This document shows, piece by piece, positions 3,790-54,412 of a stretch of 64,000 bases of DNA. Under the pieces are notes generated by a model. That model was not told the origin of the DNA and searched no databases. It was given only the letters and a program-made list of their open reading frames with translations. A program made the position numbers and the translations under genes. This DNA is from Puniceicoccales bacterium (GTDB taxonomy: Bacteria > Verrucomicrobiota > Verrucomicrobiia > Opitutales > JAIRLM01): NCBI GenBank assembly GCA_031268535.1, contig JAIRXB010000014.1, forward strand, positions 8,108-72,107. The letters are read 5' to 3'. Numbering within the stretch: position 1 is the stretch's first letter; each line of letters starts with the position of its first letter.

Positions 3790-4878
3790 CTAGGGGGATG
3801 GTTTTCCAATTTCCGCCATGCGCGCTTCCATTTCGGCGCGCCGTAGAGCCTCCAAAAGATTGGCCAACTGCCCATCCATTATTTGTGGTAAATTGTGCAG
3901 CGTTAGGCCAATGCGGTGGTCAGTCAGACGATTTTGCGGAAAATTGTAGGTGCGTATGCGCTCCGAACGGTCGCCGCTGCCGATTTGGCTGCGCCTATTG
4001 CTGTCGTACTTTTCCCTTTCTTCGCTGCGGCGCCTTTCCAGCAGCCTCGCGCGGAGCACTTTCGTCGCCTTCACCTTGTTTTTCTGCTGAGATCTTTCGT
4101 CGGCGCATATGACGATCATGCCGGTGGGCTTGTGGAGAATCTGCACGGCAGAATCGGTTGTATTTACTCCCTGTCCGCCTGGGCCGCTGGCTTTGCACAC
4201 CGTAATTTCCAGTTCCTCTGGAGCAATTTGCACGTCAACCTCTTCCGCTTCCGGAAGCACCGCCACCGTCGCAGTGGATGTGTGTATGCGGCCGTTAGCT
4301 TCCGTCACCGGAACGCGCTGTACGCGGTGGACTCCGCTCTCCAACCTGAGTGTGCGATAGGCGTTTTCGCCGCCAATGGAGAAAATTATTTCCCTAAAGC
4401 CGCCACTTTCTGCGCCGCTGGCGCTAAGCAATTCAACGGTCCATGCGGAGCACTCCGCAAGGCGCACGTACATGCGGTAGAGATCCCCAGCAAAAAGTGC
4501 CGCTTCGTCTCCTCCGGTTCCGGCGCGAATTTCAATGACCGTATTGCGCGAATCGTCGGGGTCTTCGGGGGCCATTAGGCCCATCAGGCGAAAGTGTGCA
4601 TCGCCCTCTTCGGCCGAGACGCGTCCAAGCTCTTCCCTGGCGAGAAACTTGATGTCTTCGTCGCAACCTTGGTCCGCCAGGATCGATTCCGCTTCCAGAC
4701 GAGCCTGCTCCAGGGAACGGCAGCGGCCATGGGCCTCCAGAAGCTCTCCAATGCGGCGATGCTCACGCGCCACGGCGGCGGCCCGCCTGCCGTCGCCGTA
4801 GAAAGTTGGCTCAGCCATTTCTTTGGCCAGCTCTCTCTGCCGCTCCACAAAGCGATCAACTGGAGGAATGCTGTCCAT
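3790..4878 (-). CDS. prfA: Peptide chain release factor 1
   Basis: 362 aa. It carries the RF1-specific P-V-T tripeptide (RVQRVPVTEANGRIHTS) and the universal GGQ motif (SGPGGQGVNTTDSAV). Confidence 0.92.
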   Translation of the reverse strand: MDSIPPVDRFVERQRELAKEMAEPTFYGDGRRAAAVAREHRRIGELLEAHGRCRSLEQARLEAESILADQGCDEDIKFLAREELGRVSAEEGDAHFRLMGLMAPEDPDDSRNTVIEIRAGTGGDEAALFAGDLYRMYVRLAECSAWTVELLSASGAESGGFREIIFSIGGENAYRTLRLESGVHRVQRVPVTEANGRIHTSTATVAVLPEAEEVDVQIAPEELEITVCKASGPGGQGVNTTDSAVQILHKPTGMIVICADERSQQKNKVKATKVLRARLLERRRSEEREKYDSNRRSQIGSGDRSERIRTYNFPQNRLTDHRIGLTLHNLPQIMDGQLANLLEALRRAEMEARMAEIGKPSP

Positions 4879-4892
4879 TGGATTGGCGGCGG

Positions 4893-4963
4893 TGCGGATG
4901 GAGGGAGTCGAACCCTCACCTCAAGCTTGGGAAGCTCGCGTATTGCCGCTATACTACACCCGC
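4893..4963 (-). tRNA. tRNA-Gly (anticodon CCC)
   Basis: Reverse complement folds as a cloverleaf. The acceptor stem is GCGGGTG/CATCCGC, the anticodon arm is CGAGC-TTCCCAA-GCTTG, and the T-arm is GGTTCGACTCC. CCA is not encoded. It lies about 15 nt upstream of the prfA start codon on the same strand. Confidence 0.8.
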
Positions 4964-5089
4964 GTCGGCTCTTTCCTGGGGGAGGCGGCGGAGTCGGCAA
5001 GCGCAAAATGGTGCGGATGGCTCAATTTTGCCGAGGCACCGCTGCGCCGATGGCGCAGCTAGAAAAATTTCGAGAGCTAATGTTTTTGC

Positions 5090-6631
5090 GTGCGCCATCT
5101 CAGTTCTCCAGATATACTCCACGCAACCGATATGGCTGATGTGGGATTTAATTTTTTTGGTGGCATCAGATTCAATTTGGTTGATGAGGAATTCTCCAGG
5201 GCGATGCAGTCGCTTAGGGACTCCGTAACGCCGTCCAAAGACATTGCGAGTATTTCCACTGGAAATGTAGCCGACGACGACGAAAGTGTAAATACTTCTG
5301 ATCTCGCCACCTCATTATTTAGAGCTTCAGATGATGTTGGTTGTCTGTTCGTGTGCGATTATGACGCGAAGCTTTCGGCTGGGCAGAAGTTTTTTTACGT
5401 TTTGCTTTTGCTGGTCACATTCGGCTTTTACCAGCGTTCGATCAGGATGGGTACGCAAAGGCTTGTGGAGGCGGTGAAAGCTGGCGGCGCAGCTGATGAT
5501 GTCAGGAGAATTTTGGTCGAAATTTTAGGTGAGAGCAATAGAGGGGCCATTGGCGACATTGTCAAAGATGGCAACATCGAGGCCGTTGTCGAATGCGCCA
5601 ATGTTTCCGGTGCCGTCGCCGTTTTAGGCAACAAGTTCGATTCGCTATTTGTGGCCGCAAACAAAGAAAGTGTAGATGGGACGAAACCAAAATTCAATAG
5701 GGCATTTGAGCTGCTTGCCTTCGCCGCATGCGCAAAGGCCGATAACCTTAGCGAAGCGATTGATGCCGTTGGAGCAGCTGACGACGCGCGGGGAATTGCG
5801 GAAGCGCTAAACAAACTTACGGACGGCGAAGCTCAAGTCTTCAAAGCCAAAGGCGGTGCGGAATGTGATGACCTCGAAGCCCACAAAGCGGAAATAGTTA
5901 ACCTCCTTAAGTTTATCCATGCCGATTTTGAACTCGCAAAAGTAATGGATTGGCGTGCCGCCCGCATTGCAGCGGCCGAAAAGATTTTTAACCTTGCAGA
6001 GTGGAAAAGTTTAGTTGGCAATGCTGGTGCGGATACATATTATGCTGCAGATATCATTCGCAATAGTCGTGGCGCGCATGCGGCCGCGACAGAAATTGCG
6101 GAAAAAATTAAAACTCTCATTGGCGACGGCGGTATTTATGAGGGAAAGTTAGCGTTGAAATCTGCTCCAAATGAAGAATTGGTGGCAGACTCCATTACCG
6201 TAGAGCTGATTATTGAATCCATTGCGGAATATGTGCGTTCGCAATACGAAAAGCTCGCGAAAGAAGATGCCATCCATGATTCTTTCTATTGGAATATCGC
6301 AGGACGTCCCGGCAGTCTTGGAGAGTTTCTTGGTGTGATTGGGCTGACACTAAAGGGTGGAGAGGAAAATGTTCGCACATCCCGTCCCTCGTTGACTGAA
6401 TATATACTTACCTGTGGCGGACCGCTAGTACTTCATGTTTCCAGTTCGTGCGCTAGAGCGATAACTGCAGTGAAAGTAAAAGATGGAAAAACTGCCAAAA
6501 CGCTAATTGATGGTGAAGTGGCCGAAGCGAAAGACAGTGCAAAAAGAGAAGCTGCCGAAGCAATTAAGGCGCTTATGGGGAGGAAGCCTGCAGCCTCTGC
6601 GGAAGCGCCGGAAGAATCTGGAGGTAGCTGA
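5090..6631 (+). CDS. Paralog 1 of an Ala-rich single-pass membrane protein family (about 500 aa); the true start is probably the ATG near 5132 (MADVGFNFFGGIRF...)
   Basis: Track ORF. It shares with the four downstream paralogs the motifs FFGG(I/L)R, SAGQK before a roughly 20-aa hydrophobic helix (FFYVLLLLVTFGFY), AFELLA, LNKL, EYYA, FEGKLAL, ELIxESIAEYVR, LGEFLG and TLGQLIE-like. Confidence 0.8.
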   Translation: MRHLSSPDILHATDMADVGFNFFGGIRFNLVDEEFSRAMQSLRDSVTPSKDIASISTGNVADDDESVNTSDLATSLFRASDDVGCLFVCDYDAKLSAGQKFFYVLLLLVTFGFYQRSIRMGTQRLVEAVKAGGAADDVRRILVEILGESNRGAIGDIVKDGNIEAVVECANVSGAVAVLGNKFDSLFVAANKESVDGTKPKFNRAFELLAFAACAKADNLSEAIDAVGAADDARGIAEALNKLTDGEAQVFKAKGGAECDDLEAHKAEIVNLLKFIHADFELAKVMDWRAARIAAAEKIFNLAEWKSLVGNAGADTYYAADIIRNSRGAHAAATEIAEKIKTLIGDGGIYEGKLALKSAPNEELVADSITVELIIESIAEYVRSQYEKLAKEDAIHDSFYWNIAGRPGSLGEFLGVIGLTLKGGEENVRTSRPSLTEYILTCGGPLVLHVSSSCARAITAVKVKDGKTAKTLIDGEVAEAKDSAKREAAEAIKALMGRKPAASAEAPEESGGS

Positions 6632-6693
6632 TCCTGTTCCGCGGAATGTTCAATCGAAGATTTGCGACGCGCTAGGCCCTAAATGGCGGGCTG

Positions 6694-8325
6694 ATGTTTT
6701 TTCTTCTTGCGTCATCCCGGCTTCATTGTCATACTGCTGCTGAGGAAGTAAAAAATATGAGCATCGGATTAGGATTCATTGGCTCCTTCAGAGCCACTGC
6801 GCTCCAAGCGGAGCTTGGCAAGCTCGTGGGCAAAGTCGAGACAACTGCGACCGGTCTGGGGCACGCTAAAGCAGTGACTACTGGCAGCGCTATAGGTGGT
6901 GGTGCCGAATCCAAAACTGAAAAACTCCTGGATCTTGGCAAAGCGTTGTCTGCGGGCATAGTGGGCGGTGTCGATGACAAATTCGGAAGCGTAAAAACGT
7001 CAGCCGGGCAGAAGCTTTTATTTCTTCTGCTGTCGCTAATTACGTTTGGCGTCCTTCCAATCGTGATTAGGAGCGGTGCGCGCCATGCTGCCGCGGTGAC
7101 GGAAAGAGGCGATGAAACCGCGCTAAAGGATATTTTGGTCAAAGCTTTTGGCGGTGACAATGCCAACAAAATTGCTGACAGTTCATACATCAAGAATGCC
7201 GTCGCATGCGCAAAAGCCTCCTCGGCCGCCATCGCCATATGCAAATCATTGGATAAAGCGTTCGCCGTTGAAGATGGTGGAGCGAGTGAATCTTCTGCGG
7301 ACGCTGGTGGCACTGCAAAGTCCCAAAAACCACCAATGAAAGCGTCTGCAATGTTTATCAAATATGCCTTTTCGACCGCTGAAGATCTTGATGATTTAGC
7401 CGGCAAGACAGCTGACGCTGCGGACGCAGATGCGCTACTGACTATTTTAAATGAAAAACTCGCGGGGGAAGCAACTCAAAAATTCAAGCTTAATGGCGGT
7501 GACGATCAGTCTGAAGGAGAGGGTCTTGGTAAACTTAAAAGCGAGATAGCTAGTTTCATTAAACTTATCTCGGCCAGTTCAAAACTTGCGGAGGCGCTGA
7601 GCCCAGAGGACATGCGCAAAAAAGCGGCCGCGGAAGTCCTTGGGGGTGCAGCGTGGGCGCAAAAGGCCGGTAAAAAAGATGCAGAAGAGTACTATGCGAC
7701 AGTTGCCTCTCGAGATGGCGGAAAATCGGCAAAACGACTGAATGGTGGCGTCAAAGAGATTGCCGACATAATTAATTCGCTACTTGGTGAAGATGGTGTG
7801 TTCGTAGGCAAAATAGCGTATGCTACAAGCCAAAGTGATGCCATAGTCAAAAGCGACGATTCCACTGATCTTACTAATGCATTCAAATCGGCCATTGCGG
7901 AGTTTGTGCGCACGGCCGTTGAGACACATTTGAGGGGAGGCAAAGAACTCAAGGATTTCCGGGCTATCGCCGCTCCCGCTAAAATAGGGGAGCTTCTTGC
8001 TATGCTGGGGCTGGTGGTGATAGGCGGTGAAGACGGCCTTAGCGGGGACGCTGACCTAAGTAAGACTAGTGGCCTAAAAAGGATTGGTGGAAAAGTTGCA
8101 GTCCTTCTCAGTAGGTATGTGGAAATACTAAAAACGGCTAAGGTGGATGAAGAAAAAACGCTTGGGCAGCTAATTGAGGACAAAATAAGCGCAGCAAAAA
8201 AGGGCGCGGAAGATGCGGCCGGTGTTGCGAGGGGGACCTTTATTGAAGCTACTGCTGTCCAGGAGGCTGAGGTGTCACGGGAAGAACCCCAAGAAAAAGA
8301 GCAAGCAGGTCAAGATGATGATTGA
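6694..8325 (+). CDS. Paralog 2 of the Ala-rich membrane protein family; the true start is probably the ATG near 6756 (MSIGLGFIGS...) after a GAGGAAG Shine-Dalgarno sequence
   Basis: Track ORF. Transmembrane segment KTSAGQKLLFLLLSLITFGVLPIVI, plus AWAQKAGKKDAEEYYATVA and TLGQLIED. The upstream in-frame ATG at 6694 lies inside the conserved promoter module and is not in frame in the other copies. Confidence 0.8.
   Translation: MFFLLASSRLHCHTAAEEVKNMSIGLGFIGSFRATALQAELGKLVGKVETTATGLGHAKAVTTGSAIGGGAESKTEKLLDLGKALSAGIVGGVDDKFGSVKTSAGQKLLFLLLSLITFGVLPIVIRSGARHAAAVTERGDETALKDILVKAFGGDNANKIADSSYIKNAVACAKASSAAIAICKSLDKAFAVEDGGASESSADAGGTAKSQKPPMKASAMFIKYAFSTAEDLDDLAGKTADAADADALLTILNEKLAGEATQKFKLNGGDDQSEGEGLGKLKSEIASFIKLISASSKLAEALSPEDMRKKAAAEVLGGAAWAQKAGKKDAEEYYATVASRDGGKSAKRLNGGVKEIADIINSLLGEDGVFVGKIAYATSQSDAIVKSDDSTDLTNAFKSAIAEFVRTAVETHLRGGKELKDFRAIAAPAKIGELLAMLGLVVIGGEDGLSGDADLSKTSGLKRIGGKVAVLLSRYVEILKTAKVDEEKTLGQLIEDKISAAKKGAEDAAGVARGTFIEATAVQEAEVSREEPQEKEQAGQDDD
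6702..6740 (+). promoter_or_regulatory. Conserved promoter-like module upstream of paralog 2 (TTGCGT, 17-nt spacer, TGtCATACT extended -10)
   Basis: The sequence ttcttgcgtcatcccggcttcattgtcatact recurs nearly identically upstream of paralogs 3 and 4. A diverged version (tttgcgtgcgccatctc...atatact) lies upstream of paralog 1. Confidence 0.5.
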
Positions 8326-8415
8326 ACATGATTCCGCTGAAGATTTGCTGCGGCGCTACTAAGCCCTAGGCTATGGACTTGCGGCTGCGCGTAGGCGAAC
8401 TGCGAAGATGCGCTA

Positions 8416-8442
8416 GGCGGGCGACTCCATTGGGCGCCCGCC
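8416..8442 (+). terminator. GC-rich hairpin in the conserved 3' flank of paralog 2, a candidate intrinsic terminator
   Basis: The hairpin ggcgggcg-actccattgg-gcgcccgcc has an 8-9 bp perfect GC stem and is followed by a T-containing tract (gttaaattttcgttttcg). The homologous flank after paralog 3 (about 10540-10570) is more degenerate. Confidence 0.4.
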
Positions 8443-8549
8443 GCGAGTGTTCCTGCCGTTAAATTTTCGTTTTCGCTGCGAATTTTCGTGGAAGCCATTC
8501 GCGCGTGGCTCTGGAAGCCGCCGATTTTTTTGGGAAAGTTCATATAAAT

Positions 8550-8826
8550 ATGGGCGACGGAAGGAAGATTGCGCGTGCCATCGGCAGGAAAATTTTCGAC
8601 CCCATAGGGAATCCAGCCGTCGAGGTTGATGTCGTCCTGCTGGACGAATCTGGAGGTCGCGCCGCCGTCATGTCCGGCGAGCTGGCGTTGTGCGACTAAT
8701 GAGTGCGCGGCGATGGCCAGCAATTTGCCCCAGTGCGCTAGGGCGGCAAAGGTGTGCTTGCCGCCGCGCACATTATAAATGCCGGCGCTGGATATCGCAG
8801 GCCAGGAGCTGGGAGAAAGATTTTTC
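8550..8826 (+). pseudogene. Degenerate 5' fragment of enolase (eno') with its upstream region, copied along with paralog 2
   Basis: It encodes [40 protein letters not shown]..., which is homologous to the start of the real eno at 14405. It carries internal deletions and a premature stop. It ends at the junction ...gaccaggagctg|ggagaaag, where eno would continue with attgatggc. Confidence 0.75.
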
Positions 8827-8840
8827 CGATTTTTGATGTT

Positions 8841-8880
8841 TTTTCTTGCGTCATCCCGGCCTCATTGTCATACTATTCTT
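8841..8880 (+). promoter_or_regulatory. Conserved promoter-like module upstream of paralog 3
   Basis: The sequence ttttcttgcgtcatcccggcctcattgtcatactattcttgaggaattaaaaatATG matches the module upstream of paralog 2 with 17-nt spacing. Confidence 0.5.
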
Positions 8881-8894
8881 GAGGAATTAAAAAT

Positions 8895-10445
8895 ATGAGT
8901 GACCCACTTAAGCTTGGAGTGTTCGGATCCATAAAGTCCGCTTCCATTGAAGCCCAGATTGCTAAGCTTGAAAGCAATCTTAGTAAGTCTGTAACCGAAC
9001 TGGGCGGCACCGCAAATGTGTCTACTGAAGCTAGTGCAGGTGGCGCAAAGCCAGAAGTCGTAGGCATTGCCGGTGCGCTATTGAGCGCCATAAAAGCTGA
9101 TGCTAGTTCGCCTGGAGTCGCAAAACCAACAGCTGCGCAAAAGCTTATATTTTATGTGCTGGTGGCAATTACATTTGGCATTCTTGCGCTCATGGTTAAC
9201 AGAGCTGTGGGTGGCGTTGTCGCGGCGGTGCAAGGTGGCGATTTGGAAAAGGTTAAAACTGCTTTGAAAGATGCTTTCGGAGATACGGATGGCGAAAAAA
9301 TTGCTCAAAGCCCATACATCACGAATGCCGCCGCAAACGCAAGAGCCGTTTCGGCCGCCGCTTCCGCGTGTGACGCGATAAATGTCGCGTTCGACATTGA
9401 GGCCGCCAAAAGCCAGAAGACGGGCGCTGACGAAGACAAGAAGGCGCCAGTACCCACTAAGGCTTCGGAGCTGCTTGTCGGACTTTTGTGCGGAAAAGCG
9501 GACAAGCTTAGCGCATTAGCTGAAGCTATTGATAAAGCCAACGACGCTAACGCACTAGTGAAAGCGTTAAATGATAACCTCGCGACTAACGAAACTCAAA
9601 CTTTCAAAATTAAAGCCGGTGGTTCTGCTCCGAGTGGAGATGGCTTTACCAAACTTAAAAACACGACACTTAGTCTCGCTAAGCTTATCGGCGCCAGTTC
9701 CGCATTTGCTGTGGCACTGGATCTAACGGCGTCCCGCAAAGCAGCTGCCGTGAAAGTTCTTGCGAATGAGGCGTGGAGGGACAAGACGGGCAAAAAATCG
9801 GCAAATGAGTATTACGCGACAGTTGCGCTTACTGATGATGCCACCCTGAAAGGAACTGTGGACACTGCTGCCGCAGAGGTCGCCGCGGCGCTTAAAGCAC
9901 TAGTTAATAAAACTGGCAGTGACGGCACGAACAAACTCAAGGGCAAAATAGCGGTTGTGGCAGATTCATCCGCAGCCGTAGACGAAGACGGCATTGTTGG
10001 TGATAAGCTTGCAGAAGGCGTTGGGGAGTTTGTGTGCAAAGCCGCTGAAAAACATTTAAGTGAAGGCGGGAAGCTCGAAGATCTTTCAGTTGCCGTTCCC
10101 ACTAAAGCATTGGAACTTCTTCCGGTGCTTGGGCTGGCGAAGCTAGATAGTAATGTCGACATTACTGATGCTACGACCGCGGAATCGGTTGGCCTCGGAG
10201 GCGAGGTGACAGGAAAGATTAAGGTCCTTGCTGACAAATATGTGGCAATGCTAAAAGCGGCAAATGTAGGCGAAACAAACAAAACGCTTGGGCAGCTAAT
10301 TGAAGAAGAAGTAACCAAAGCGAAAACGAATGCTGAAGCGACGGCTACTGCTGCAAGAGCTGCATTTATTGGTGCTGTTACTCCTGCGAAGATTCCACCT
10401 TCAGATCCGAAAGCGCCGAAAAAACCTGCTGAAGATACTAAATGA
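8895..10445 (+). CDS. Paralog 3 of the Ala-rich membrane protein family
   Basis: Track ORF of 516 aa. Transmembrane segment AAQKLIFYVLVAITFGILALMV, plus ALKDAFGDTDGEKIA, AWRDKTGKKSANEYYATVA and TLGQLIEEE. It is preceded by the GAGGAAT Shine-Dalgarno sequence and the conserved promoter module. Confidence 0.85.
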   Translation: MSDPLKLGVFGSIKSASIEAQIAKLESNLSKSVTELGGTANVSTEASAGGAKPEVVGIAGALLSAIKADASSPGVAKPTAAQKLIFYVLVAITFGILALMVNRAVGGVVAAVQGGDLEKVKTALKDAFGDTDGEKIAQSPYITNAAANARAVSAAASACDAINVAFDIEAAKSQKTGADEDKKAPVPTKASELLVGLLCGKADKLSALAEAIDKANDANALVKALNDNLATNETQTFKIKAGGSAPSGDGFTKLKNTTLSLAKLIGASSAFAVALDLTASRKAAAVKVLANEAWRDKTGKKSANEYYATVALTDDATLKGTVDTAAAEVAAALKALVNKTGSDGTNKLKGKIAVVADSSAAVDEDGIVGDKLAEGVGEFVCKAAEKHLSEGGKLEDLSVAVPTKALELLPVLGLAKLDSNVDITDATTAESVGLGGEVTGKIKVLADKYVAMLKAANVGETNKTLGQLIEEEVTKAKTNAEATATAARAAFIGAVTPAKIPPSDPKAPKKPAEDTK

Positions 10446-10656
10446 AAGCCGTAAATGATCTGCCGACGATTTGCGGCGACGTCTAAGCCCTAGACGATGG
10501 ACTGACGGTGGCGCGTAGGCGAACTGCGAAGGCGCGCTTGGCGGGCGACCTCATTGGGCGTACGCCGCGAGTGCTTCCGCCGTTAAATTTTCATTTTCGC
10601 TGCGAACTTTCGCGCGGAAATCATTTATAGGTGGCTCTGGCAGGCGAATAACCAAA

Positions 10657-10996
10657 TATTGGTGACGGAAGGAAGATTGCGCGCGTCATCGGCATGGAAA
10701 TTTTCGACCCGATAGGGAATTCAGCCGTTGAGGTTGATATCGTCCTGCGGGACGGATCCGTAGGACGCGCCGCCGTCTCGTCCGGCGCCAGCACCGGCGA
10801 GAGGGAGGCGCTGGAGTTACGCGACTGCGATGCGCCCAATGAGTACCTCGGTGATGACCCGCAATTTGCCCCCGTGCGCTACGGCGGCAAAGGTGTGCTT
10901 GCTGCGGTGCACAACATAAATGCGGCGATGGGGCCCGGAATCGTCGCGCTGGACGCCGCAGACCAGGGGCTGGGGAAAAGTTTTTCCGCTCTTTAA
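10657..10996 (+). pseudogene. Second, younger 5' fragment of enolase (eno'), about 100 codons and near-identical to eno, with the start codon mutated (ATG to ATT)
   Basis: Track ORF 10694..10996 ([58 protein letters not shown]...ALDAADQG) matches eno residues 1-100 almost exactly. It ends at the same junction (gaccaggggctg|gggaaaag) followed by the promoter module of paralog 4. Confidence 0.8.
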
Positions 10997-11000
10997 CGTT

Positions 11001-11040
11001 TTTTCTTGCGTCATCCCTGCTCCATCGCCATACTAATTTT
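11001..11040 (+). promoter_or_regulatory. Conserved promoter-like module upstream of paralog 4
   Basis: The sequence ttttcttgcgtcatccctgctccatcgccatactaattttagggaattaaagatATG matches the other copies. Confidence 0.45.
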
Positions 11041-11054
11041 AGGGAATTAAAGAT

Positions 11055-12554
11055 ATGGCTGCACCTGTGAACACTCCTACCTTCTTTGGTGGCCTTAGGG
11101 TCTCCGTTGCTGAACGCGAATTTCACAGTGCCATTAGCGCGCTCAAGGAATCCGTAACCAAGCTGAATGTTGGTGCTGATGTGAGGACTGGAGGTGCTGG
11201 TTCTGAATCCGCCCAAAAGACAGAACGTCTGGGTCTCGCCGAAGCGTTGTTTGGCGCCGCAGAATCGAATCAAGGCCTGTTTGCGGTCTCGGGTGTGAAA
11301 CTTTCGGTTGCGCAAAAAATTGTTTACATTATTCTCGTCTTGGTTACGCTTGGTTGCTATGGATGCACGATCGAGGGCAGCGTGCGAGCTGTTGTTGGGC
11401 AGCTAAAGGAGGGCAAAGACGCTGCTGAAGTCGGGGCGGCTTTGAAGAAAATTGTAGGCGGCAGACAAGCGGATGTTGCGTTGTTTGTCGGCGACGGCAA
11501 ACACCTTGGGCCCCTTGGCAAACATGTTGCCGCCGCATCGGCCGTCGACAACCTAGCTAATCAATTCAACGCGCTGTTTAGCGTCAAAGACAAGAGCGGC
11601 AGCACTGCTAGCGATGTCACCAAATTCGATAAAGCGTTCGAGCTGCTTGCCTCTGCGTCATTCGCAAGTGCGGACAAACTTAGCGACGCAATTGATGAAG
11701 TCAATAAAAGTTCCGCTGCTGACGCCGTGGTGGTTGCTTTAAATAAACTTAATACTGGCGCAGCTCAAGAATTTAAGCTTACAGATGGTGCATCACCTGA
11801 TAAGTTTGGTGACACCAAAGTGGGGATTGCTAAGTTCTTAGCGCTTCTCTCCGCAAATCTTAATTTTGCAAATGCACTGCCCGCGAAGGACGCCCGCGTT
11901 GCGGTTGCTGGGACAATTCTTGCAGGCGAATCTTGGGCAAAGAAAGTCGCGGAAAAAAGTGCTAGCGAATACTACCTTGCAGTTGCGACCGCAAGTGAAT
12001 CCGAAGGGAAAGCGACATTCGACGCAAAAGCGGCGGCGGTTGTCAGTGCATTTAAAACACTAGTTGGTTCTGACCAAGCTTTTGAAGGCAAATTGGCGCT
12101 TGCGGCAACCCTAGGCGATAAAGTTGAAGGCGGTGGCATTACTGCTGAGTTGATTTCCGAATCAATTGCGGAACATGTGCGCGGTAAGTACGAGGCACAT
12201 TTAAATGCAGGCGGAACAAGCGACACTTTTAGCGTAGGAAGGCCCGCTAATCTTGGAGAGCTTCTTGGAGCCGTAGGGCTTGGGATAAAAAGTGGCGAAG
12301 TTGGAATCAAAGCCACTGATGCTGCGGTAGCAGACAACAAAGTCACCGAAGATGCTGTGGCGGCATTTATGGCCGCTGTTGAGCAGTGTATTGTGTGGAT
12401 AAAAGCGGCGAAAGTGACAGGTGACAAAACCATCGAAACGTTAATTACGGATGCGGTTGAAAGTAAGAAACGAGTCGCAGAAAATGCCGTTAGCGACGCG
12501 CGGGACGCATTATCTGCTACTGCTAAGTCGGTGCCACCTGCATCCGCATCATAG
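11055..12554 (+). CDS. Paralog 4 of the Ala-rich membrane protein family
   Basis: Track ORF of 499 aa. FFGGLRVSVAEREF, transmembrane segment SVAQKIVYIILVLVTLGCYG, plus AFELLASASFASADKLSDAID, EYYLAVA, FEGKLALAATLGD, ELISESIAEHVRGKYE and LGELLGAVGL. Confidence 0.85.
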   Translation: MAAPVNTPTFFGGLRVSVAEREFHSAISALKESVTKLNVGADVRTGGAGSESAQKTERLGLAEALFGAAESNQGLFAVSGVKLSVAQKIVYIILVLVTLGCYGCTIEGSVRAVVGQLKEGKDAAEVGAALKKIVGGRQADVALFVGDGKHLGPLGKHVAAASAVDNLANQFNALFSVKDKSGSTASDVTKFDKAFELLASASFASADKLSDAIDEVNKSSAADAVVVALNKLNTGAAQEFKLTDGASPDKFGDTKVGIAKFLALLSANLNFANALPAKDARVAVAGTILAGESWAKKVAEKSASEYYLAVATASESEGKATFDAKAAAVVSAFKTLVGSDQAFEGKLALAATLGDKVEGGGITAELISESIAEHVRGKYEAHLNAGGTSDTFSVGRPANLGELLGAVGLGIKSGEVGIKATDAAVADNKVTEDAVAAFMAAVEQCIVWIKAAKVTGDKTIETLITDAVESKKRVAENAVSDARDALSATAKSVPPASAS

Positions 12555-12623
12555 GTGCGTCCCAAACGATGGAACGGCGGTGGCCCAATTCGCCAGGGCC
12601 ACCAATTTGGCCGCTGAAGGCGT

Positions 12624-14276
12624 GTGGATTCATTTTTTCCAATAAATCCACACGTCTTTCCGCATTCGCAATTTCGCAAAAGGCCTGCGAAAGGAGTTTT
12701 GCCTGTGAGTATTTCGTTCACCCAATCTATCGTGGCTCACTCGGCTTTGAACAGGCTTGCCGACGATGTGGCCAAGCGCGCTTCATCGGCAACGACCGAC
12801 ATTGGTGCCGCCGCAAAAGTGGCAACGAAGGCTAATGTTGTTGCCGCTGGCGGTGTGGCTGCGGCGACGGATTGCGCAGTCGCCAAAGCGCTAGTTTGCG
12901 CGGTGAAGATTGACGACGACAAAACCCTTGGCTGCGTTGCACAACTTTCTTTCGGGGTAAGACTTGCATGGTTTGCGCTCACATTGTTTAGTTTTGGCCT
13001 ATGGCATTTCCTGGTGGTTAATCGCCAATCGCGGGATGTATCCGACAAGTTGATTGGAGCGGGCGGCGACTCCATTGACGCCGATGGACTGAAAAGAATC
13101 TTAGGTGAAGAGTTGGGCGAAAAATTAGCCAATTCTTCATACGTTAGGAGCTGCACGGTCGCCACAAGCCTCTCCGGGGCGGTTGACGATTTTGCGGGCA
13201 AATTTAACGCAGCATTCACAGTAGCTAAATCCACTGAGGCAGAGGTAGAAAAGCAAACAACATTCCAGAAGCCGATTGAGCTGCTTGCCTACGCTACGCA
13301 CCTGGCCCAAAATGCAAGTTATCATTATCTAATGGCGTTTGCTGGCGCCATGAGCGGGACTAGTGATGTCTATGAATTGATGGATGTGCTGAATCGTTAT
13401 GTCATAGATGGCGGGCAAGCATTTTTGATCGCGGAAAGTGCGCCTGCTGAACTAGCAACCTTTGAAGATTTAAGGGCGGCCCTAGTGGCGTTCGTCCGCC
13501 TTACCGCCGCCGCCATGGGCATAGCGGAAACGTTGGATCCGAAGGCATTGCGCCAGGAAGCTGCCAAAAATGTGTTTTACGATAGCAGTGCGTGGAGGGA
13601 GTTTGAGAGTGCTGCCGAAAGAGCAAACGATGAATGTGACGCCAATGCGGCCGTTAAAGCGGCAATTGATGGTCAAAATGTTTTTGGAGAGGAAAAAGGC
13701 GATGAAGCAACGGCGTTCAATGCATGCTTTGGGAAGCTGGTAGCCGCTCTCGGGCGCGGCGGGCCCATTGAAGGCGCCATTGCGAGTGCCGATGGCAGCG
13801 CAATTGCCGATGGAGACGCGCTAAGGGATGCGATCAAGAGCGAAATCGACCATAAGATTTTCTGGAGAGCATTAGTCGTATCCGTAGTCTACTACTATAA
13901 GATGTTCCTCATTGGCGATCCCTACAAAAAACAAGATTTCGCCGCATCGTTGGCCGAAGAAGATGGCGGTTGCCTTGTGAGATTGCTCGGTCTACGGTTT
14001 TTTGGCGCCGCATCATCGGATGGAATGGAAAGGGATGCTGCCAGCAGGGCGATTGCAGACGCCATCCGGCCCCTCATTGTCGAACTTGCCGACGTCATTG
14101 CTGCGGCTAAGTTCAGTGTAGACGGTGCGGATGTGACCGTAGAAGATCTAATTGCGAAGGAAGAAACTGCGCTAAAGACTAAAGCTGAGACAGCAATTTT
14201 AAATGCGCGAGACGTTTTTATCGCTGCCGCTAGGGAGGTCGCCACTTCTAGCGCCAGCGCTGAAGACGCTGAGTAG
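12624..14276 (+). CDS. Paralog 5 of the Ala-rich membrane protein family, the most divergent copy; it probably starts at the GTG near 12705 after AGGAG
   Basis: Track ORF of 550 aa. It has the same architecture: an N-terminal region, a hydrophobic helix (LSFGVRLAWFALTLFSFGLWHFLVV), then a long Ala/Asp/Glu/Lys-rich region containing IELLAYATHLAQNAS and an Ala-rich C-terminus. It lacks the conserved upstream promoter module and follows paralog 4 after about 70-150 bp. Confidence 0.75.
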   Translation: MDSFFPINPHVFPHSQFRKRPAKGVLPVSISFTQSIVAHSALNRLADDVAKRASSATTDIGAAAKVATKANVVAAGGVAAATDCAVAKALVCAVKIDDDKTLGCVAQLSFGVRLAWFALTLFSFGLWHFLVVNRQSRDVSDKLIGAGGDSIDADGLKRILGEELGEKLANSSYVRSCTVATSLSGAVDDFAGKFNAAFTVAKSTEAEVEKQTTFQKPIELLAYATHLAQNASYHYLMAFAGAMSGTSDVYELMDVLNRYVIDGGQAFLIAESAPAELATFEDLRAALVAFVRLTAAAMGIAETLDPKALRQEAAKNVFYDSSAWREFESAAERANDECDANAAVKAAIDGQNVFGEEKGDEATAFNACFGKLVAALGRGGPIEGAIASADGSAIADGDALRDAIKSEIDHKIFWRALVVSVVYYYKMFLIGDPYKKQDFAASLAEEDGGCLVRLLGLRFFGAASSDGMERDAASRAIADAIRPLIVELADVIAAAKFSVDGADVTVEDLIAKEETALKTKAETAILNARDVFIAAAREVATSSASAEDAE

Positions 14277-14389
14277 GTGGATCGTGGGAGGCGTTTTGCG
14301 CCAAGAGGTCCGTTGGTGGAAAGTCCTTTGGCGCTAGGTTTTTGATTTCCGCCTAAAATTTTCTGTGGGATTTTCGCGAATGGCTTTGA

Positions 14390-15739
<1,350 letters not shown>

Positions 15740-15743
15740 GGCA

Positions 15744-16481
15744 ATGGCCATCAAGCTGGATCTCGTTCGCGGTGAATTGGTGGCGCGGCCGAATCGCTTC
15801 GTGTTTACGGCGAAAGTGAATGGCGAAACGGTGCGACTCCACTGTCCCGTGACGGGCAGCATTGGCGGCATATGCGACTTTAGTTCAATGCCGTGCCTGC
15901 TGAGTCCCGCTGGCGCTGGAGGGCGATCAACTGCCGGCACGGTGGAGGGCATTTCGCTCGATAGGGGCAAATCCTGGATCGGCATAAACCAAAATCACGT
16001 GAACCGGTGGATGGAGCAGTTTCTCCAGGAAAATGCGCTGGATGAGATGGTTCCGTGCGCCGGGGCAACCGTTAGTCGTGAGGTGCGGGTCGGCAATTCG
16101 CGGCTAGATCTTTGCGTGATGGCCGGCGAAAGGCGCACCTACATCGAAGTAAAAACACCAATGCGGGACCTGCTCCTCGGCGACAATGTGGAATTTCATC
16201 GGCCGTCCTCTTCCGACTATTTTGCTCGCGGCATCAAGCACTTTGAGGAACTTGCCAAATTGGCGGTGGCGGGCAACCGTACGGTTGTGGCCCTATGCTG
16301 TATGTATGACGCATCGCCATTTAGGCCGCCGCAAACGGAATGGGGAAGGCACATCCAGGAGGCCGTAAATCGCGCAAGGCACTGCGGCGTAGAAATGTGG
16401 CAGGTAAATTTAAAGTTGAGCCCGAAACGCATTTCCGTGGCGTCCATCAGGAATATGCCGCCATTTTTTGCGGGGCCATAG
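15744..16481 (+). CDS. sfsA: SfsA-like protein (sugar fermentation stimulation protein homolog)
   Basis: 245 aa. The N-terminus LVRGELVARPNRFVFTAKVNGETVRLHCPVTGSIGG matches the SfsA pattern (R-x-NRF ... HCPNTG). It starts 5 nt after eno. Confidence 0.6.
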   Translation: MAIKLDLVRGELVARPNRFVFTAKVNGETVRLHCPVTGSIGGICDFSSMPCLLSPAGAGGRSTAGTVEGISLDRGKSWIGINQNHVNRWMEQFLQENALDEMVPCAGATVSREVRVGNSRLDLCVMAGERRTYIEVKTPMRDLLLGDNVEFHRPSSSDYFARGIKHFEELAKLAVAGNRTVVALCCMYDASPFRPPQTEWGRHIQEAVNRARHCGVEMWQVNLKLSPKRISVASIRNMPPFFAGP

Positions 16482-22150: not shown

Positions 22151-25100
22151 CTAGGCTGGTGTGCCTGTACTCTGTTTTGCCCTCCGCCTGGAAGCAAAAC
22201 CTGTCGTCGGCGCGGGTGCGGCGGCAGCGCAAGCTTGTATGTGGTCTGGGTCGCGTTTTGCGATCATCAAGCAGGCAAGTTTTCCTTCCGTGAAAGGCGG
22301 AATGGCTTTGTTTGTCTTTCTAATGCCCTCGTATGTATTGGCTAGCTCAAGTAGCTGTTGTTGCGAACCGCCGCCGATCTGGCTTTCAGTTTGGTAGGCG
22401 ACGCCAATTGCCGCAGCTGCGGCCGGGAGTAGAGTTGAATCAAGTGTCTTAAGGTCGGCAATTGATTTAACGTTGAATATGACTAGCGTATCGGCTACGC
22501 CGATTTCGCCAAACATTTTTAGTCGATCATTTTTAGTGTGGTTGGCAGCTAGTGTCCCACTAAAATCTTTCAGCGCTTCTGATCTTATGCTTTTAAAGAG
22601 GGCAGTACGGTTTTTGGCAGCGTTTTGGTCAGCGATTGCCGTTTTAAGGCATTGCGCCATGTGAATGGCGGCAATGAATGCAACTTCGCTTTTTAGCGTC
22701 CTATCGTGTTTTTTGTCGAAGAAGTCGCTTGCGATCGCAAGTTTGCCTTCTTTGGCAAGGCCTAGAAGATCGCCGCCATGACTCGCCGCAAACTCATTCA
22801 ATTGAGTTCCGTCACAGCATCGCACTGCAGCCGCCAATTTGTCTGGGTCCACAGCTCCTCCTATCGTTATCACGGCGTCGCAGCCCAAAAGTCTAGCAAA
22901 TGGCGTGCTTGCGCAGGCTTGGATTTGGGCGACGGTAATTTCTTCCTGATGACTGTTGGTGCTAAGACTGGCGCGCAGCAGCTCAAGGGAATCTTCGCTG
23001 GCCATTAGCGTTTCCAGTTGCTCACCGACTAAATTGTCCTTGATTCGAGCAAGAATATCGGCAGGGGCGCAATTTTTCAAAACGGCGGCAATGCAATGTA
23101 GAAACACAAATTTCGCGTTTGCCATTTCGGTTTGTTTTCGGCTGCAAGATAAGATGGCGCTTTTGCTGTTTGGGGATCGTTTTTTTAGTGCTTCGGCTTT
23201 TTCGTGTTCCCCGGATGCATCTTTGAAGTTTCTGGCGACAGCTATGAAAAATTGCGGATTCGCCACCGGTATGCTTTTGACTATTGGCGAGCTGCCGCTG
23301 TTTTGCTGCTCGCTTTCAAACCCTTTTCGGATGGCGTCCATCGATTGTGACTTCTGCAATTCAACGTCGCCGCCGACCAAAATGGCGGCAATGATAGACT
23401 GCGGATTCGACAAGTTTTCAAGGTTGCCGTAGTTTTTGGTGAGAAGATGATTTTGTGGATCGCATATGTATAGCGTCACCGGGCTTGTTTCGCTAAGTCC
23501 TTCCAGCACCTTTTTTTCGCCATAGGCAACTATGGCCGCGGCCCTATGTTTGATATCTTCGGTTGTTGCGTTCGGCAAAGTGGATCCGAATGCTGCAACC
23601 GGTAAAAGTTTCAGCATCGATTTTGCGTCTTCATCTTCCGCAACTGTCTTAAACCACGCACCGGGAACGTGCATCCATTGCGATCCGTTCATGAGTGGCC
23701 CCATGAGTAGAATAATGTGGTATGGTATCTGTTTGGCGAAATGCTCGAAAAATCTTGCGACGGAAGCTTGCAAAACTGGACCATCGTAGTTATTGATGAA
23801 TCTGGATTGGGATAAAATATTTCTTTTTGCCACTGCGTCCAAGCACTTCAAAAGCCGCTTTTCCACATCCGGGTCGCCGCTGATCGTTGAGGCCCTAAGC
23901 ATGAGCGATATTATGAGTTTGTTGGTGGTGTTCGAAAGGTTGCCTTCAAGTCTAGTCAACTTCGCCAATGCCGCGTCTCTTTCGCTTCCGGAAGCGGCTT
24001 CGGTGAGTCTTTTGAAACTGACGGCCAATTGCTGTGCCAACTTTTCCGTAACGTCTTCGTTCCATGCTGTGTGGTCGAGGCGATTTAGCTGATCGATGGC
24101 TCCGTTGCGAATCACAGCGTCAGCGAGTTGGACGGCGGTTTCTGCAGCGACACAACTCTGTTCATCTCTGCCGGCCCCAGATGAGGCTGCTTTGGCCGTA
24201 TTGTTTACCTCTTCGACGGGCAGGGCGGTCGTTAAAGCTTGATCTTCCGATACACATTCAATCAAGTATGGTCCGCAGTTACCCAAGAAATCAGCCTCGG
24301 TGGCGTATGCTACGAGTTTCTGCGTTTGGAGTGAACTTTCGTGTTCTTCGCCGGCCGACTGGTCCAGTACGCCCAATTGCTGCCGTATCAATTGCGCCTC
24401 AAGCATGATTTTGGCATAATTTGCTTCTGAATCTGAAGTGTTGATTTCGCGGGCAATTCCGGCCATCCTGTCGCGCATGTCTTTCGTTTTTTTCGATTTC
24501 TTTTCCGCGGATGCCGCAAAAAGATTGGCGATCATCGCTTCCGTTGAAGCGACGATTTGTCCTTTGCAAAAATCTGTGGACATAGCTTCCAGCACGTCAG
24601 CTTTGCTGATGTTTGAAATGGCGCCATTGCCGCAGACCAGCAGCATGGCGACAAGGTCATTGTAGAGAACAGAATCCGACTCTTTTATCTTAGCCAGCAT
24701 GTCGCGGTTCCAGACATCCGGAAATGCTATGGCGCCAGTGGATTGTGAATTTGCCATTTCCACGAAAATATCCGTTGGAACCGTGTGGGGGAATCTGGTG
24801 CTGGCGAATGTGGAAACTAGGTCGTTTCTGAGATGCAATATGGCGCCTGCGAAGAATGCTCCGCTCGTGCGCGATTCAGCGCCAATTGTCAGGCCGCGCC
24901 CTCTGGCATCTAGGTCAATGAGCGTTCTGGCATTATCTCTTATGCGTGTTAGCGCCGCCAGGCTTGGGACAGTGTAAAAAACACTGCGAAGAGCCTCGTC
25001 GCCATCCGCCTCTGCGCCAGCGAGCTGCGCGAGTTGAGAATGGCGGCCTATCCCTAAATTGCGACCTGTCCTGCCACGGCCATTGGCGCGGAGCATACCG

Positions 25101-28100
25101 TTAAGATTGATGGCGCCATCGAGATAGGCTTTCTTTATTTCGGCCGCCATAGCAACGTCGTCACCATGATTAGGGGTGATAAACGTACATTCCATAATGG
25201 CAAGGCTTGATTCGGCTTTGCACTTTCTCACAAGGTCGGTAACAAGGTCGTTAAAACGATCTGTAATGGGACTGGTATTTTTTTCTATCTCACTTCTGAC
25301 TTCGAGGCTTTTTTCCGACAGATTAAACCATTGCGTGCCAGCGGCGGCAAGTATCTTTCTTCTGTCTGTGGTGTCGACTTTTCCGCCGCGCGAAGCGTCC
25401 AGCAAGCTCTTCCGTGCGATATTGGCGTCGGAGGCAGTATTGCCACATACGGTGTCGGCCAAATGCTGAATTTGATCTATGGCGTAAACCGAATCGTGCG
25501 TAGCCGATTCGATCTCGTCGACCGCTCGCTTGATGACTAATCTGGCTGCACCTGTTGCTTGTTTGGCATTAGATGCATCTACTGCAGTAAGTGAGCCAAC
25601 GATTGCTTTTGCGACGGCTGTCATGGTAGGCAACGCCTTTGCAAAAACGTCATTTTCGAGATTGCCGACACAGCATTCCGTAAGCTCCACTAGAAGGACT
25701 TGTTCAATGAGTTTTAGTTCCGGCGGCCACGTAGTAGCGCCCGTATCGCGCATAGATTTTCGCACCGGAGAGTTTTGATCATCAAAATCAAATGCAGCGA
25801 TCCATCGTACAACGTGAGGCTTGGCAGCGTCATCGACGATTTTCGCGACTCCGAATAGCTTCGCAACGTTGCTATTCTCACTACTCAGCAGAACTCTTGC
25901 ATTATCAATTATCCCTTTAGGACGAATATCACCAACTTTTGCTTTTGCTGCGGCGATCGAATCACTAATTGCCTTTCTCCTTTTCTCCAATGTTTTCCCG
26001 GGAATCATTAGGGCGAATAGGCGAAATGCATCCAATTGTCCGTAGGTGTCGAGTTGGTGCCAATCTTTGTCGGCCAAAAGATTGGTAAGCAAATCTTTGC
26101 TATTGGTGCCCTTTGCAACTAATTTGTCGATGAGGCCTTGAAGTTTAGCGTTGCCACCAACGCCAGCTATGGTGCGCGCGATCACGGCCATGCGAGTGCG
26201 CAGCTCGCTGCAGTCCTGCTTGGCTCCGCGGCCACGTTCAACCAAGCTAGCTATTTCAGCTTTTAATTTTTCAAAAATTGGAGTAACACATTCTTCGTCT
26301 TTGCGCTCGACATTCCTGTCGCGCCACGCACCAATGCCAACTGACAAGAGCTGCGAAACGGTCATGGACGCAACCTGCTGCGTTGATCCGTGGCGCACAA
26401 TTTCTTCCAAAATGCTGGCTTCCGGCTTTATCTGCGCCAAGGTTTCCAGATCGATTTTTTGGATTAGGTTCTGCGCGCCAGCCGTAAGCATGAAGCCTCT
26501 GAGATGCGTTTCGTTGAGAGCGGATATGGCATCGCAGCTTCCGAGGCGAATAATTTGAGCTACGTCTGCTCCCTTGAGAGACTTGCTAATGCTTTCAATA
26601 TCCCTTTCCCGAAGGCGAGCTAGAGCTCGCGGCATGCGTTGTGATAGCAGCAAAAAGTCTGCATAAGTAAGCACGAAAGCGGCATCGGACTCCATGCATG
26701 CGAGCCAGCCGGCGGCCGACGGCGTGCCGCTTGTTTTTGCGGTCTTTGCCGCGTTAAGGGCGCCTGTAAAACTTGTCCCTTTTGCATTAGCGGCATACGC
26801 ATGAGCAACTTGCGTAAGTGCAGCATCCCATACCGCCTGCCATAACTTTGATGTGGAGAAACCGCTATCGGAAAATTTATCCGTGTCCGGCCCATAGCCG
26901 AATGTTTTATGCATATTGGCGAGAACTGCAACGCATGCGATATCGGCGCTGTCGCCAAACTTGTCGTCTATGGCAATCACGAATGCCAAATTGGCAGCAA
27001 GGTGTTCGGCCAAAAATGATTCCCCGTCTTTTTCCGACACTACTCCCTCGGCGCCTCGAAGGCAGGCAGAAAGAGCGGACGATCTGGATTTGATGCGAGC
27101 GATTACCGCATTGCTAAGAGTAGCGCTGCCAATTTCATCGAGTGCCTGTGCCATTTCGGCTTTTCCGGGGGATTTGCGCACCATGTCCCTAGACAAAATC
27201 GCCGCCTGCTTTTGCCCTATGGCTGCATTATTTTTTGCGTTAGCGAGCAGGGCGTAGACCGTACTTACGCATTCATCCGACGAGATTCTCGCTATGCGCT
27301 CTTTCGAGAGCCTTGTGGACAGCATGACGTGAAGCGGACTTCCGTCGGCTATAAATTCCGCCGGCTTCGCCGCAACTTTTTCGCCCCCGCCATCTACGGC
27401 TTCGGATGGCATGCGAGGTTGTGGAATGACATCGTCGCAATCGACATCGCATTTGCGCACATCAACCGCCAAACTGTGGCGCATTAGCAATTCAATTTGT
27501 TTATCCGTGATGTCATCGACCGTTATGGCTGGCGCCCCATCGCCCCTGACTATCGCCATTAGGAGCTTGACGAAGCCCTGCTCAATGCGCCCGCCGTCTT
27601 TGCACGATTTTTCGAGATCGATCAGTTCGTCGAAATCTTGCAGGCGGCCCGGCAAAAGTATTTCGCTAAGAGCTGTTCCAGTTGTTTCGTGGATGCGTAT
27701 GATTTGCCACGGGCAGAGCAGGCGCCTCAGTTCTACGGGAAATGCCTCAACCGTGGCCCATTTTAGACGTTCAACGTCAGACTCCGTTAGGAGTGGTGTG
27801 AATTCGTCCGTAAGTCGACCCACTACATCTGGCGCGCCCTTGAAGGCGGCTATGAACTCGGGAAATCGAAACATGTGCCTGATGAGTTGGTTGTTTGAGA
27901 TTCTTTGTAGTCTCTCGGACGACACCGATTTGGCGATAGCGGCGATCCATGGGCTGTTTGGCACACAAAAGGAAAGTATGTCGACTAGTGCCGCTTCGCT
28001 TTCTTGATTTGGGACGCCATTAGCGTCGCACTCAAGAAGTTTGGCGGCGACTTCATCCAACATGGATTCGCCGTCGGATTCTCCCGGTCGAGCCCTCAGG

Positions 28101-54110: not shown

Positions 54111-54121
54111 GGGGAGGATAA

Positions 54122-54349
54122 TTACTCTAGCGCCAGCAAAGCCAATAGCAAATAAATGGCGATGGCTGAACCGAGCAGAACTGAAAATGCGGCCAGCAAT
54201 TTTCTTCCGTGGATGGCGTAAAGATTTTTGCCGACGGCGACGCAAAGGCTTATTAGTAATGCATTTATGGCGAGAATGACTGCGGCAAAAAGTGCAATTA
54301 GTCGCAGTGCCATCCGCCGGAATATTCTTTTGTGTGCCGCAAAAGTCAA
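54122..54349 (-). CDS. Small two-transmembrane membrane protein (75 aa) upstream of the SPFH gene, possibly an NfeD-like partner
   Basis: Track ORF. It has two hydrophobic helices and ends 12 nt before the SPFH start. The NfeD assignment is only an inference from operon context. Confidence 0.35.
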   Translation of the reverse strand: MTFAAHKRIFRRMALRLIALFAAVILAINALLISLCVAVGKNLYAIHGRKLLAAFSVLLGSAIAIYLLLALLALE

Positions 54350-54412
54350 CGGGAAGAGTGCATGGGCGCCAAAAAGCTCGATGGCGATGGCAATTGCCCA
54401 TAGACAGCCGCT

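Follow-up and report, generated by a model that had tools for sequence, protein, structure and literature searches.

An orphan family of five tandem paralogs in a Puniceicoccales genome: diverged coding regions between similar, partly eno-derived spacers

Tandem arrays of diverged paralogs are known from Staphylococcus aureus, where the lpl cluster is thought to act in host interaction (Tsuru and Kobayashi 2008, PMC2568036). The evolutionary unit of lpl consists of the ends of the open reading frames (ORFs) together with the intergenic region, and recombination between the repeated conserved segments reshuffles the array (PMC2568036). Here we describe another such array, the genes P1–P5, which lies in a stretch of 64,000 nucleotides (nt; hereafter the window) from a metagenome-assembled genome (MAG) of a Puniceicoccales bacterium (contig JAIRXB010000014.1, positions 8,108 to 72,107 of the forward strand). 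While lpl has a conserved recombination site in the middle of the ORF, the conserved segments of P1–P5 are purely intergenic and comprise a 3' module, a relic of the enolase gene eno and an upstream module. The lpl proteins are lipoproteins; P1–P5 lack a lipobox, show no sequence relationship to them and are seen here in one genome.

Three other groups of proteins resemble P1–P5 in composition or layout. The hydrophobic translocators of type III secretion systems (T3SS; IpaC/SipC/YopD and IpaB/SipB/YopB) are very poorly conserved in sequence between lineages, and like P1–P5 they are helical and rich in Ala, measure several hundred residues, and have a non-globular N-terminus and no Sec signal; they carry one or two hydrophobic helices, P1–P5 one. 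The chlamydial Inc proteins are, like P1–P5, lineage-specific orphan membrane proteins of bacteria of the Planctomycetes-Verrucomicrobia-Chlamydiae group, encoded in paralogous clusters, with an N-terminal tail, an N-proximal hydrophobic region and a helical C-terminal domain. Their hydrophobic domain is however bilobed and about 40-60 residues long, and the single helix of 18-20 residues in P1–P5 does not fit this pattern. The Vlp and VlsE proteins of Borrelia share with P1–P5 the Ala/Lys-rich composition, a helical scaffold whose core is conserved and whose surface varies, and the membership of a multigene family, but they are lipoproteins that vary by recombination with silent cassettes, and P1–P5 have a different membrane anchor, no lipobox, no cassette donors and no detectable homology to them.

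Divergence of coding regions and spacers

P1–P5 are five consecutive ORFs on the + strand, of 499–550 amino acids (aa) in the ORF listing, between tRNA-Gly(CCC) and enolase (Table 1). Counted from the likely true starts, which for P1–P4 were set by the spacer alignment where the conserved upstream module runs into an ATG, the proteins measure 499–523 aa. The starts of P2–P5 agree with the NCBI gene calls, in which these four are annotated as hypothetical proteins of 'MAG: Puniceicoccales bacterium' (exact-sequence match). Five ORFs kept at 499–523 codons, with non-synonymous divergence (dN) below synonymous divergence (dS) wherever dS could be estimated, indicate that P1–P5 are real genes. Pairwise BLASTP with composition correction aligned about 450–520 residues at E values from 1e-9 (P4–P5) to 1e-65 (P2–P3), with identities of 23–38%. 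P2–P3 and P1–P4 are the closest pairs and P5 is the outlier, with 24-25% identity to P2 and P4 (E = 1e-9 to 1e-12). A MAFFT alignment of the five copies holds 32 invariant columns, and a hidden Markov model (HMM) of the family matched exactly P1–P5 in the six-frame translation of the window. By these alignments the homology is full-length and goes beyond a shared richness in Ala.

The flanks are 80–92% identical, while the coding DNA of the copies whose flanks were compared is only 41–57% identical (Fisher p = 3e-4 to 3e-16). The shift is abrupt, as seen for P2 and P3, where the last 60 nt of coding sequence are 38% identical and the following 60-120 nt 75-88%; as similarity changes right at the start and stop codons, selection may be what holds the coding sequences apart. 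Were genes and flanks of equal age, synonymous divergence should be close to that of the flanks. At four-fold degenerate sites of identical amino acids the divergence (K4) was 0.50 for P2–P3, 0.73 for P3–P4 and 0.86 for P1–P4, and 1.2–2.8 for P5 versus the other copies, where synonymous sites are saturated. The corresponding values for the flanks were K ≈ 0.19 for the 3' modules and the first eno relic, and K ≈ 0.08 for the second relic versus eno. Divergence at the four-fold sites hence exceeds that of the flanks 2.6–9 times (p = 3e-4 to 3e-16), which makes the coding regions older than the latest ancestor common to the flanks. Positive selection acting on a protein does not explain the difference, as it cannot raise synonymous divergence. 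Nei-Gojobori dN/dS was 0.74 for P2–P3, 0.60 for P3–P4 and 0.50 for P1–P4, the least saturated pairs, and never above 1, with dS near saturation.

Divergence also differs within one unit. The second relic is 92% identical to eno, against only about 60–70% identity between the 3' flanks of P3 and P5 next to them (p = 2e-6); a mosaic of this kind is a sign that the spacers underwent gene conversion or concerted evolution. We suggest that the paralogs are old and that the spacers have been homogenised, probably by gene conversion with eno as a donor. The GC content at third codon positions (GC3) is 0.43–0.52 in P1–P5 and 0.57–0.74 in the other window genes checked, except for the ORF at 61287-62657 (0.516), and the relative synonymous codon usage (RSCU) of the family correlates with that of the housekeeping genes at only 0.32. 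This distinct usage would fit genes of foreign origin, or genes that have long evolved under another regime. Micro-conversion inside the coding regions was considered for a 23-nt run identical between P2 and P3 (encoding KTLGQLIE), and rejected, as the run is explained by amino-acid conservation together with a same-codon rate of 66%.

An earlier reading of the array, made from the sequence alone (the sequence-only reading), had described five tandem same-strand genes of one architecture, in agreement with the ORF listing, BLASTP and MAFFT, and had left room for a resemblance of nothing more than Ala-rich sequence, which the full-length alignments contradict. It placed the paralogs at about 30-45% identity, which is higher than measured, and the flanks at about 90%; coding regions and flanks do differ as it described, with flank values that are lower in places and not uniform. 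Its view that the proteins evolve fast has held up, and the surface-exposed, secreted or host-interaction role that it suggested is a possibility. Its explanation of the conserved flanks by recent amplification or diversifying selection has not, given the K4 and K values above, and the dN/dS comparison of the five copies that it proposed gave no pair above 1.

The spacers between P2 and P3 and between P3 and P4 (569 and 609 nt) are 80–88% identical and have four parts in common, namely a 3' module, a terminator-like hairpin with a T-run, the first ~330 nt of eno, and an upstream module of ~85 nt. The upstream module of P3 is 80% identical to that of P4 and 66% to that of P2. Outside its three deletions relic 1 is 83% identical to relic 2 or eno, and relic 2, which is 93% identical to 14420-14719 (repeat family D1), has lost its start codon (ATG to ATT) and differs from eno synonymously in 8 codons and non-synonymously in 11, with the conserved SRGNPTVEV motif broken. 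The relics are decaying pseudogene fragments and can serve as a neutral yardstick. In the two, the eno sequence breaks off at one position and gives way to the same upstream sequence, at the junction CAGGAGCTG|GGAGAAAG. An identical junction in both argues for one illegitimate junction formed once and then spread by duplication of the whole unit. Further, positions 8498-8543 are 83% identical to 14373-14418, the last 46 nt before the intact eno (family D10).

It should be noted that relic 2 keeps an open frame of 100 codons (10694-10996, +) with a new ATG from an AGG-to-ATG change. The NCBI accessions skip MDR1436026 between P2 and P3 and MDR1436028 between P3 and P4, and from these gaps small coding sequences may be annotated in both spacers. 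As a structured RNA the 3' module found no backing: z was -1.1 and -2.1, the folds differed between the two copies, and no Rfam family matched.

Each of P1–P4 has its own upstream module, with a GA-rich ribosome-binding site (GAGGAA) in P2–P4, while P5 has a ribosome-binding site and no upstream module. The terminator scan found terminator-like hairpins after P1 and P2. From position and conservation alone the upstream modules may be taken as promoters; their hexamers TTGCGT and CATACT match the sigma-70 consensus at 7/12 positions. P5 would then be co-transcribed with P4. The P4-P5 spacer contains an 18-bp inverted repeat (12617-12658, 89% complementary, 6-nt loop) with no T-run behind it, which could be an RNA-processing or attenuation element. 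Signs of phase variation were not found, there being no tandem repeats, T-tracts of only 5-7 nt, and no pair of inverted repeats bracketing the upstream module.

Protein architecture and the search for relatives

All five proteins follow a common plan of an N-terminal region of ~85 aa, one hydrophobic helix and a domain of ~400 aa that is mostly alpha-helical, with a few short strands, and rich in Ala, Lys, Asp and Glu. Ala makes up 15–19% of the proteins, with Lys, Gly and Asp also abundant, and the cysteines (2-7 per copy) are unpaired and unconserved. A Kyte-Doolittle peak over 19 residues falls at residues ~81–105 in all five copies (score 1.55–2.46) and marks the one hydrophobic segment of each, of 18-20 residues (15 in P1, where the helix covers residues ~81-99). 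Together with the preceding (S/T)AxQK motif this helix forms the best-conserved 20-residue block of the protein, with the juxtamembrane pattern (S/T)AxQK … T(F/L)G. The helical domain keeps its hydrophobic core positions while the surface changes quickly (dN/dS ~0.5–0.7), and a search for internal repeats in this domain found none. Neither a Sec signal nor a lipobox was seen in P1–P5, the first 30 residues holding no hydrophobic N-terminus and no cysteine.

AlphaFold2 models of P3 and P4 were built from the five-sequence alignment. The P4 model reached a mean predicted local distance difference test score (pLDDT) of 64.9 and a predicted template modelling score (pTM) of 0.57, with blocks between residues ~160 and 490 mostly at 70-91; for P3 the values were 59.1 and 0.54. 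Helices and short strands follow one another in the same order in the two models. The N-terminal ~110 residues, which contain an amphipathic helix within the first ~85, are called poorly modelled because residues 1–109 lie below pLDDT 50 in both. A Foldseek search against the PDB gave no match below E = 1.

No family above threshold was found in Pfam or NCBIfam (best E = 0.02-0.43, differing from copy to copy) or with PADLOC and PHROGs, and a sequence profile search of the PDB gave nothing better than E = 0.065. Searching the family profile by hmmsearch against 1.84e9 cluster representatives of ~15 billion public proteins returned four matches, which were P2, P3, P4 and P5 themselves. A word-indexed search with the family alignment returned nothing, and with P3 alone only P3; nor did a relative turn up when GTDB genomes and JGI metagenomes were scanned. 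As a positive control, the Band_7 protein of the window (53253-54401) scored 1e-31 in the same kind of search, and no Band_7/SPFH domain was detected by Pfam in any paralog, as an SPFH or flotillin-type scaffold would have.

Gene order around eno was not conserved among the genomes compared, and no family member adjoined eno in 80 Verrucomicrobiota or Bacteroidota genomes. The closest enolase matches were Puniceicoccales MAG proteins of 67–78% identity. At the three closest eno loci (eno 74–78% identical) neither the six-frame HMM search nor a profile comparison of the unannotated ORFs revealed a family member; upstream of eno lies ndk in two of them and a tetratricopeptide repeat (TPR) protein in the third. 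Relatives at roughly genus-to-family distance are thus sampled and have no recognisable copy. Orthologues there could have diverged past detection, because the paralogs within this one genome are already as low as 23–38% identical. Two related Puniceicoccales MAGs, L082 and L083, are GCA_031282685.1 JAITDG01 and GCA_031254835.1 JAIRTQ01. Their accession prefixes, JAIT and JAIR, are similar to the JAIS prefixes of MAGs with the isolate names Im510, Ncb351 and Hm464, names linked with a termite-gut MAG project, and the MAG of the window may stem from a sample of that kind.

P1–P5 are a genuine, lineage-restricted orphan family with no assignable sequence family or fold. The sequence-only reading, which could place the proteins in no known family, is in line with the Pfam, NCBIfam, PADLOC, PHROGs, PDB and Foldseek results, and the family searches of other genomes, which it had suggested for its motif set, turned up no relatives outside this genome. 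The conserved islands it listed are real, but as literal strings its motifs are present in only 2–4 of the five copies. FFGG(I/L)R occurs in P1 and P4 (P2 reads FIGSFR, P3 VFGSIK, and P5 has none), (S/T)AxQK in four of the five, and TLGQLIE and EYYATVA are confined to P2 and P3; TFG, TLG or SFG is found in all five.

Proposed explanation and its alternatives

We propose a tandem duplication whose unit took in the upstream module, the gene, its 3' flank and the initial ~330 nt of eno. The duplication would have made one novel junction, from eno +330 to the upstream module, and this junction would then have been copied again. Unequal exchange and gene conversion would afterwards have preserved or restored the likeness of the spacers, the intact eno serving as a donor for relic 2, while conversion tracts would stay out of the coding regions, or be removed from them, and stop at start and stop codons. 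The tandem-duplication origin is largely shown. The copies would be expressed as separate units, with P5 riding on P4, and we infer with low confidence from the modules and ribosome-binding sites of P1–P4 that they do not form a stoichiometric operon. Further, the strongly conserved transmembrane segment suggests that all copies sit in the same membrane, contacting the same partner or each other. We speculate that they are bitopic envelope proteins, most likely N-in/C-out, and alternative versions of one scaffold at the envelope or at a host or environment interface. That P1–P5 are individually transcribed membrane proteins of the envelope or host interface is put forward with low confidence, and the explanation as a whole, with old orphan paralogs, duplicated and converted spacers and bitopic interface proteins, remains tentative, a little short of an even chance.

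Several points weigh against it. The upstream module is weakly sigma-70-like, its 7/12 matches falling below the 9-of-12 threshold of the promoter scan. Topology is ambiguous, as Lys plus Arg in the 15 residues flanking the helix sum over the five copies to ~11 on the N side and ~13 on the C side, and as P1–P5 lack both a signal peptide and a lipobox, they could reach the surface of a diderm only by an export route not visible here. The models come from five sequences with pLDDT of 59–65, so that the lack of a known fold may partly be model error. Gene conversion is deduced from mosaic divergence within one genome, and the low GC3 could mean a foreign origin rather than long evolution in situ.

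The foreign origin is the core of one alternative, in which P1–P5 are a horizontally acquired islet beside tRNA-Gly(CCC), cargo of a mobile element or other foreign source that expanded locally. The array does abut this tRNA gene, its GC3 and RSCU set it apart from the neighbours, and the relatives have ndk or the TPR chaperone gene upstream of eno instead. However, the ORF list and the repeat scan show no integrase, transposase or direct-repeat attachment site, no homologue appears in the phage family set or any public proteome searched, and low GC3 is also expected of fast-evolving genes under weak selection. We consider the islet rather unlikely, though worth some weight, and it is compatible with the functional part of our explanation. 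Recent amplification, with young flanks and coding regions that diverged extremely fast by diversifying selection, targeted mutation or exchange of cassettes between strains, would account for the break at start and stop codons, for a dN/dS that is high for a bacterial gene, and for the one junction in both relics, by which three units descend from one duplication. It is hard to reconcile with four-fold sites so much more diverged than the flanks, with the lack of any pair of dN/dS above 1, and with a codon usage which the five copies share and which is unlike that of the eno-derived flanks, pointing to long independent evolution. No template/variable repeat pair and no invertible or slippage elements were found. 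Nor was a target of a diversity-generating retroelement seen, since no direct repeats occur within 4800-16000 besides the flank modules and short conserved coding islands; no reverse transcriptase occurs among the scanned neighbours, which are housekeeping genes, a scan that did not take in every small ORF of the window. We regard this course of events as improbable.

The remaining alternatives concern function, and each lacks its defining features in the tests run. P1–P5 could be secreted effectors or translocator-like proteins, such as type III substrates, of a protist-associated verrucomicrobium, with the helix inserting into a host membrane. Such a role would suit helical, Ala-rich proteins with one moderately hydrophobic segment, a poorly modelled N-terminal region of ~85 aa and no Sec signal, as would the presence in the same window of other orphan membrane proteins and an orphan protein of 5,449 aa. 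Intranuclear symbionts of termite-gut protists include verrucomicrobial relatives, which also counts in favour. Verrucomicrobial symbionts of such protists are mentioned in PMC8204192. The closest relative found (L081; ENA ERZ28642266 scaffold_618, eno 78% identical) carries directly upstream of eno the TPR protein named above (229 aa, 536-1225, +), which is SycD/LcrH-like, matching the chaperone model TIGR02552 at E = 1e-13 and 51 bits, below the cut-off of 104.8 bits, and may hint at a T3SS in the clade. In the window itself, Pfam scans of the larger neighbouring ORFs and tblastn and phmmer searches with the L081 protein found no SycD-like chaperone. The effector reading is quite unlikely in our view, and the same small chance is given to its boldest form, a new class of host-directed effector or translocator-like proteins with an unseen helical fold in a protist-associated, possibly intracellular Puniceicoccales that would make them alongside the other orphan membrane paralogs and the 5,449-aa protein of the window, several copies being kept for the different host target that each recognises. 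With the helical domain facing the cytoplasm instead, P1–P5 might be membrane-tethered housekeeping scaffolds for shape, division or membrane organisation, consistent with the missing signal peptide, charge counts that do not favour C-out, unpaired and unconserved cysteines, and housekeeping neighbours. This too has a low probability, as housekeeping scaffolds are normally conserved and slow, while the family is absent from relatives and its copies are highly diverged; translocation of an N-terminal tail of 85 aa without a signal sequence is also uncommon. Least probable by far is a role as parts of an alpha-helical pore-forming toxin of several components. The tripartite Hbl/Nhe/Ahl/Smh toxins are likewise encoded by neighbouring diverged paralogs, P1–P5 are helical and have a hydrophobic segment, and SmhA, SmhB and AhlB recur in the Foldseek list, where all matches have E >= 1; the paralogs show neither a ClyA-like elongated bundle with a hydrophobic head nor a match to Pfam HBL.

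At present P1–P5 are a well-documented orphan family in a single MAG, and such families are common. Should our explanation of a host or envelope interface be true, they would be a first lead into the interactions of an almost unstudied Puniceicoccales lineage, and perhaps a new helical fold. The locus may also serve as a worked example that neither recent amplification nor positive selection has to lie behind divergent paralogs with conserved flanks, the eno relics acting as an internal neutral clock by which the spacers appear homogenised and the coding regions old.

Feature coordinates and other genes of the window

Table 1. Features of the P1–P5 array and its borders; positions are those of the window
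Feature	Position	Strand	Remarks
prfA (RF-1)	3790-4878		just beyond tRNA-Gly(CCC)
tRNA-Gly(CCC)	4891..4963	-	left border of array; ARAGORN and Rfam tRNA, 67 bits
P1	5132..6631	+	499 aa; start ATG 5132, ORF itself opens at GTG 5090; nearest paralog P4 (34% identity, E = 1e-62)
Terminator-like hairpin after P1, overlapping P2 upstream module	6673..6756	+	hairpin 6675-6692 and T-run; module TTGCGT-17 nt-CATACT, GAGGAA, ATG; repeat family D3, spacer alignment, terminator scan
P2	6757..8325	+	522 aa; start ATG 6757, ORF opens at 6694; MDR1436025.1, LBI39_02360; nearest paralog P3 (36-38% identity, E = 1e-61 to 1e-65)
3' module after P2	8326..8545	+	hairpin 8505-8521, then seven T; 83% identical to 10446-10621 (family D5)
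eno relic 1	8546..8811	+	5' ~330 nt of enolase with three deletions (about 21, 11 and 20 nt); families D2, D4
P3 upstream module	8812..8894	+	T-tract, TTGCGT-17 nt-CATACT, GAGGAA, ATG; reference copy of family D3
P3	8895..10445	+	516 aa; start 8895; MDR1436027.1, LBI39_02370
3' module after P3	10446..10654	+	terminator hairpin partly deleted
eno relic 2	10655..10971	+	enolase pseudogene fragment, codons 1 to ~105
P4 upstream module	10972..11054	+	family D3
P4	11055..12554	+	499 aa; start 11055; MDR1436029.1, LBI39_02380
P4-P5 spacer	12555..12704	+	no upstream module or eno relic; AAGGAG 12691-12696 before GTG 12705
P5	12705..14276	+	523 aa; start GTG 12705 with AAGGAG ahead, ORF opens at 12624; MDR1436030.1, LBI39_02385; most divergent copy
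P5-eno spacer	14277..14422	+	~60-70% identical to 3' module after P3; weak homology to both 3' modules
Enolase (eno), intact	14423..15739	+	438 aa; Pfam Enolase_N and Enolase_C; 100% identical to NCBI 438-aa protein

Downstream of eno lie sfsA, mgtE and an RNase J-like gene. Other parts of the window hold further genes that we could not annotate. A single ORF of 5,449 aa (22151-38500, -) has no match in Pfam, NCBIfam or the PDB sequences and no transmembrane-like segment; its product is composed of 12% Ala, 9% Leu and 8% Ser, and its GC3 is 0.545. Three consecutive unannotatable genes, unrelated to P1–P5, lie at 58890-60071, 60159-61277 and 61287-62657 (all -). The former two are tandem paralogs (50% identical, E = 1e-114) whose products have a hydrophobic stretch of ~40 residues about 45 residues from the N-terminus, and they fit the bilobed Inc-type pattern better than P1–P5 do; the product of the third has an N-proximal hydrophobic helix. 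In the murG-ddl-ftsQ cluster we find an ORF of 723 aa (45772-47943, +) whose MurB domains are confined to the C-terminal third (FAD_binding_4, residues 456-576; MurB_C, residues 618-714), which may be a fused mur gene.

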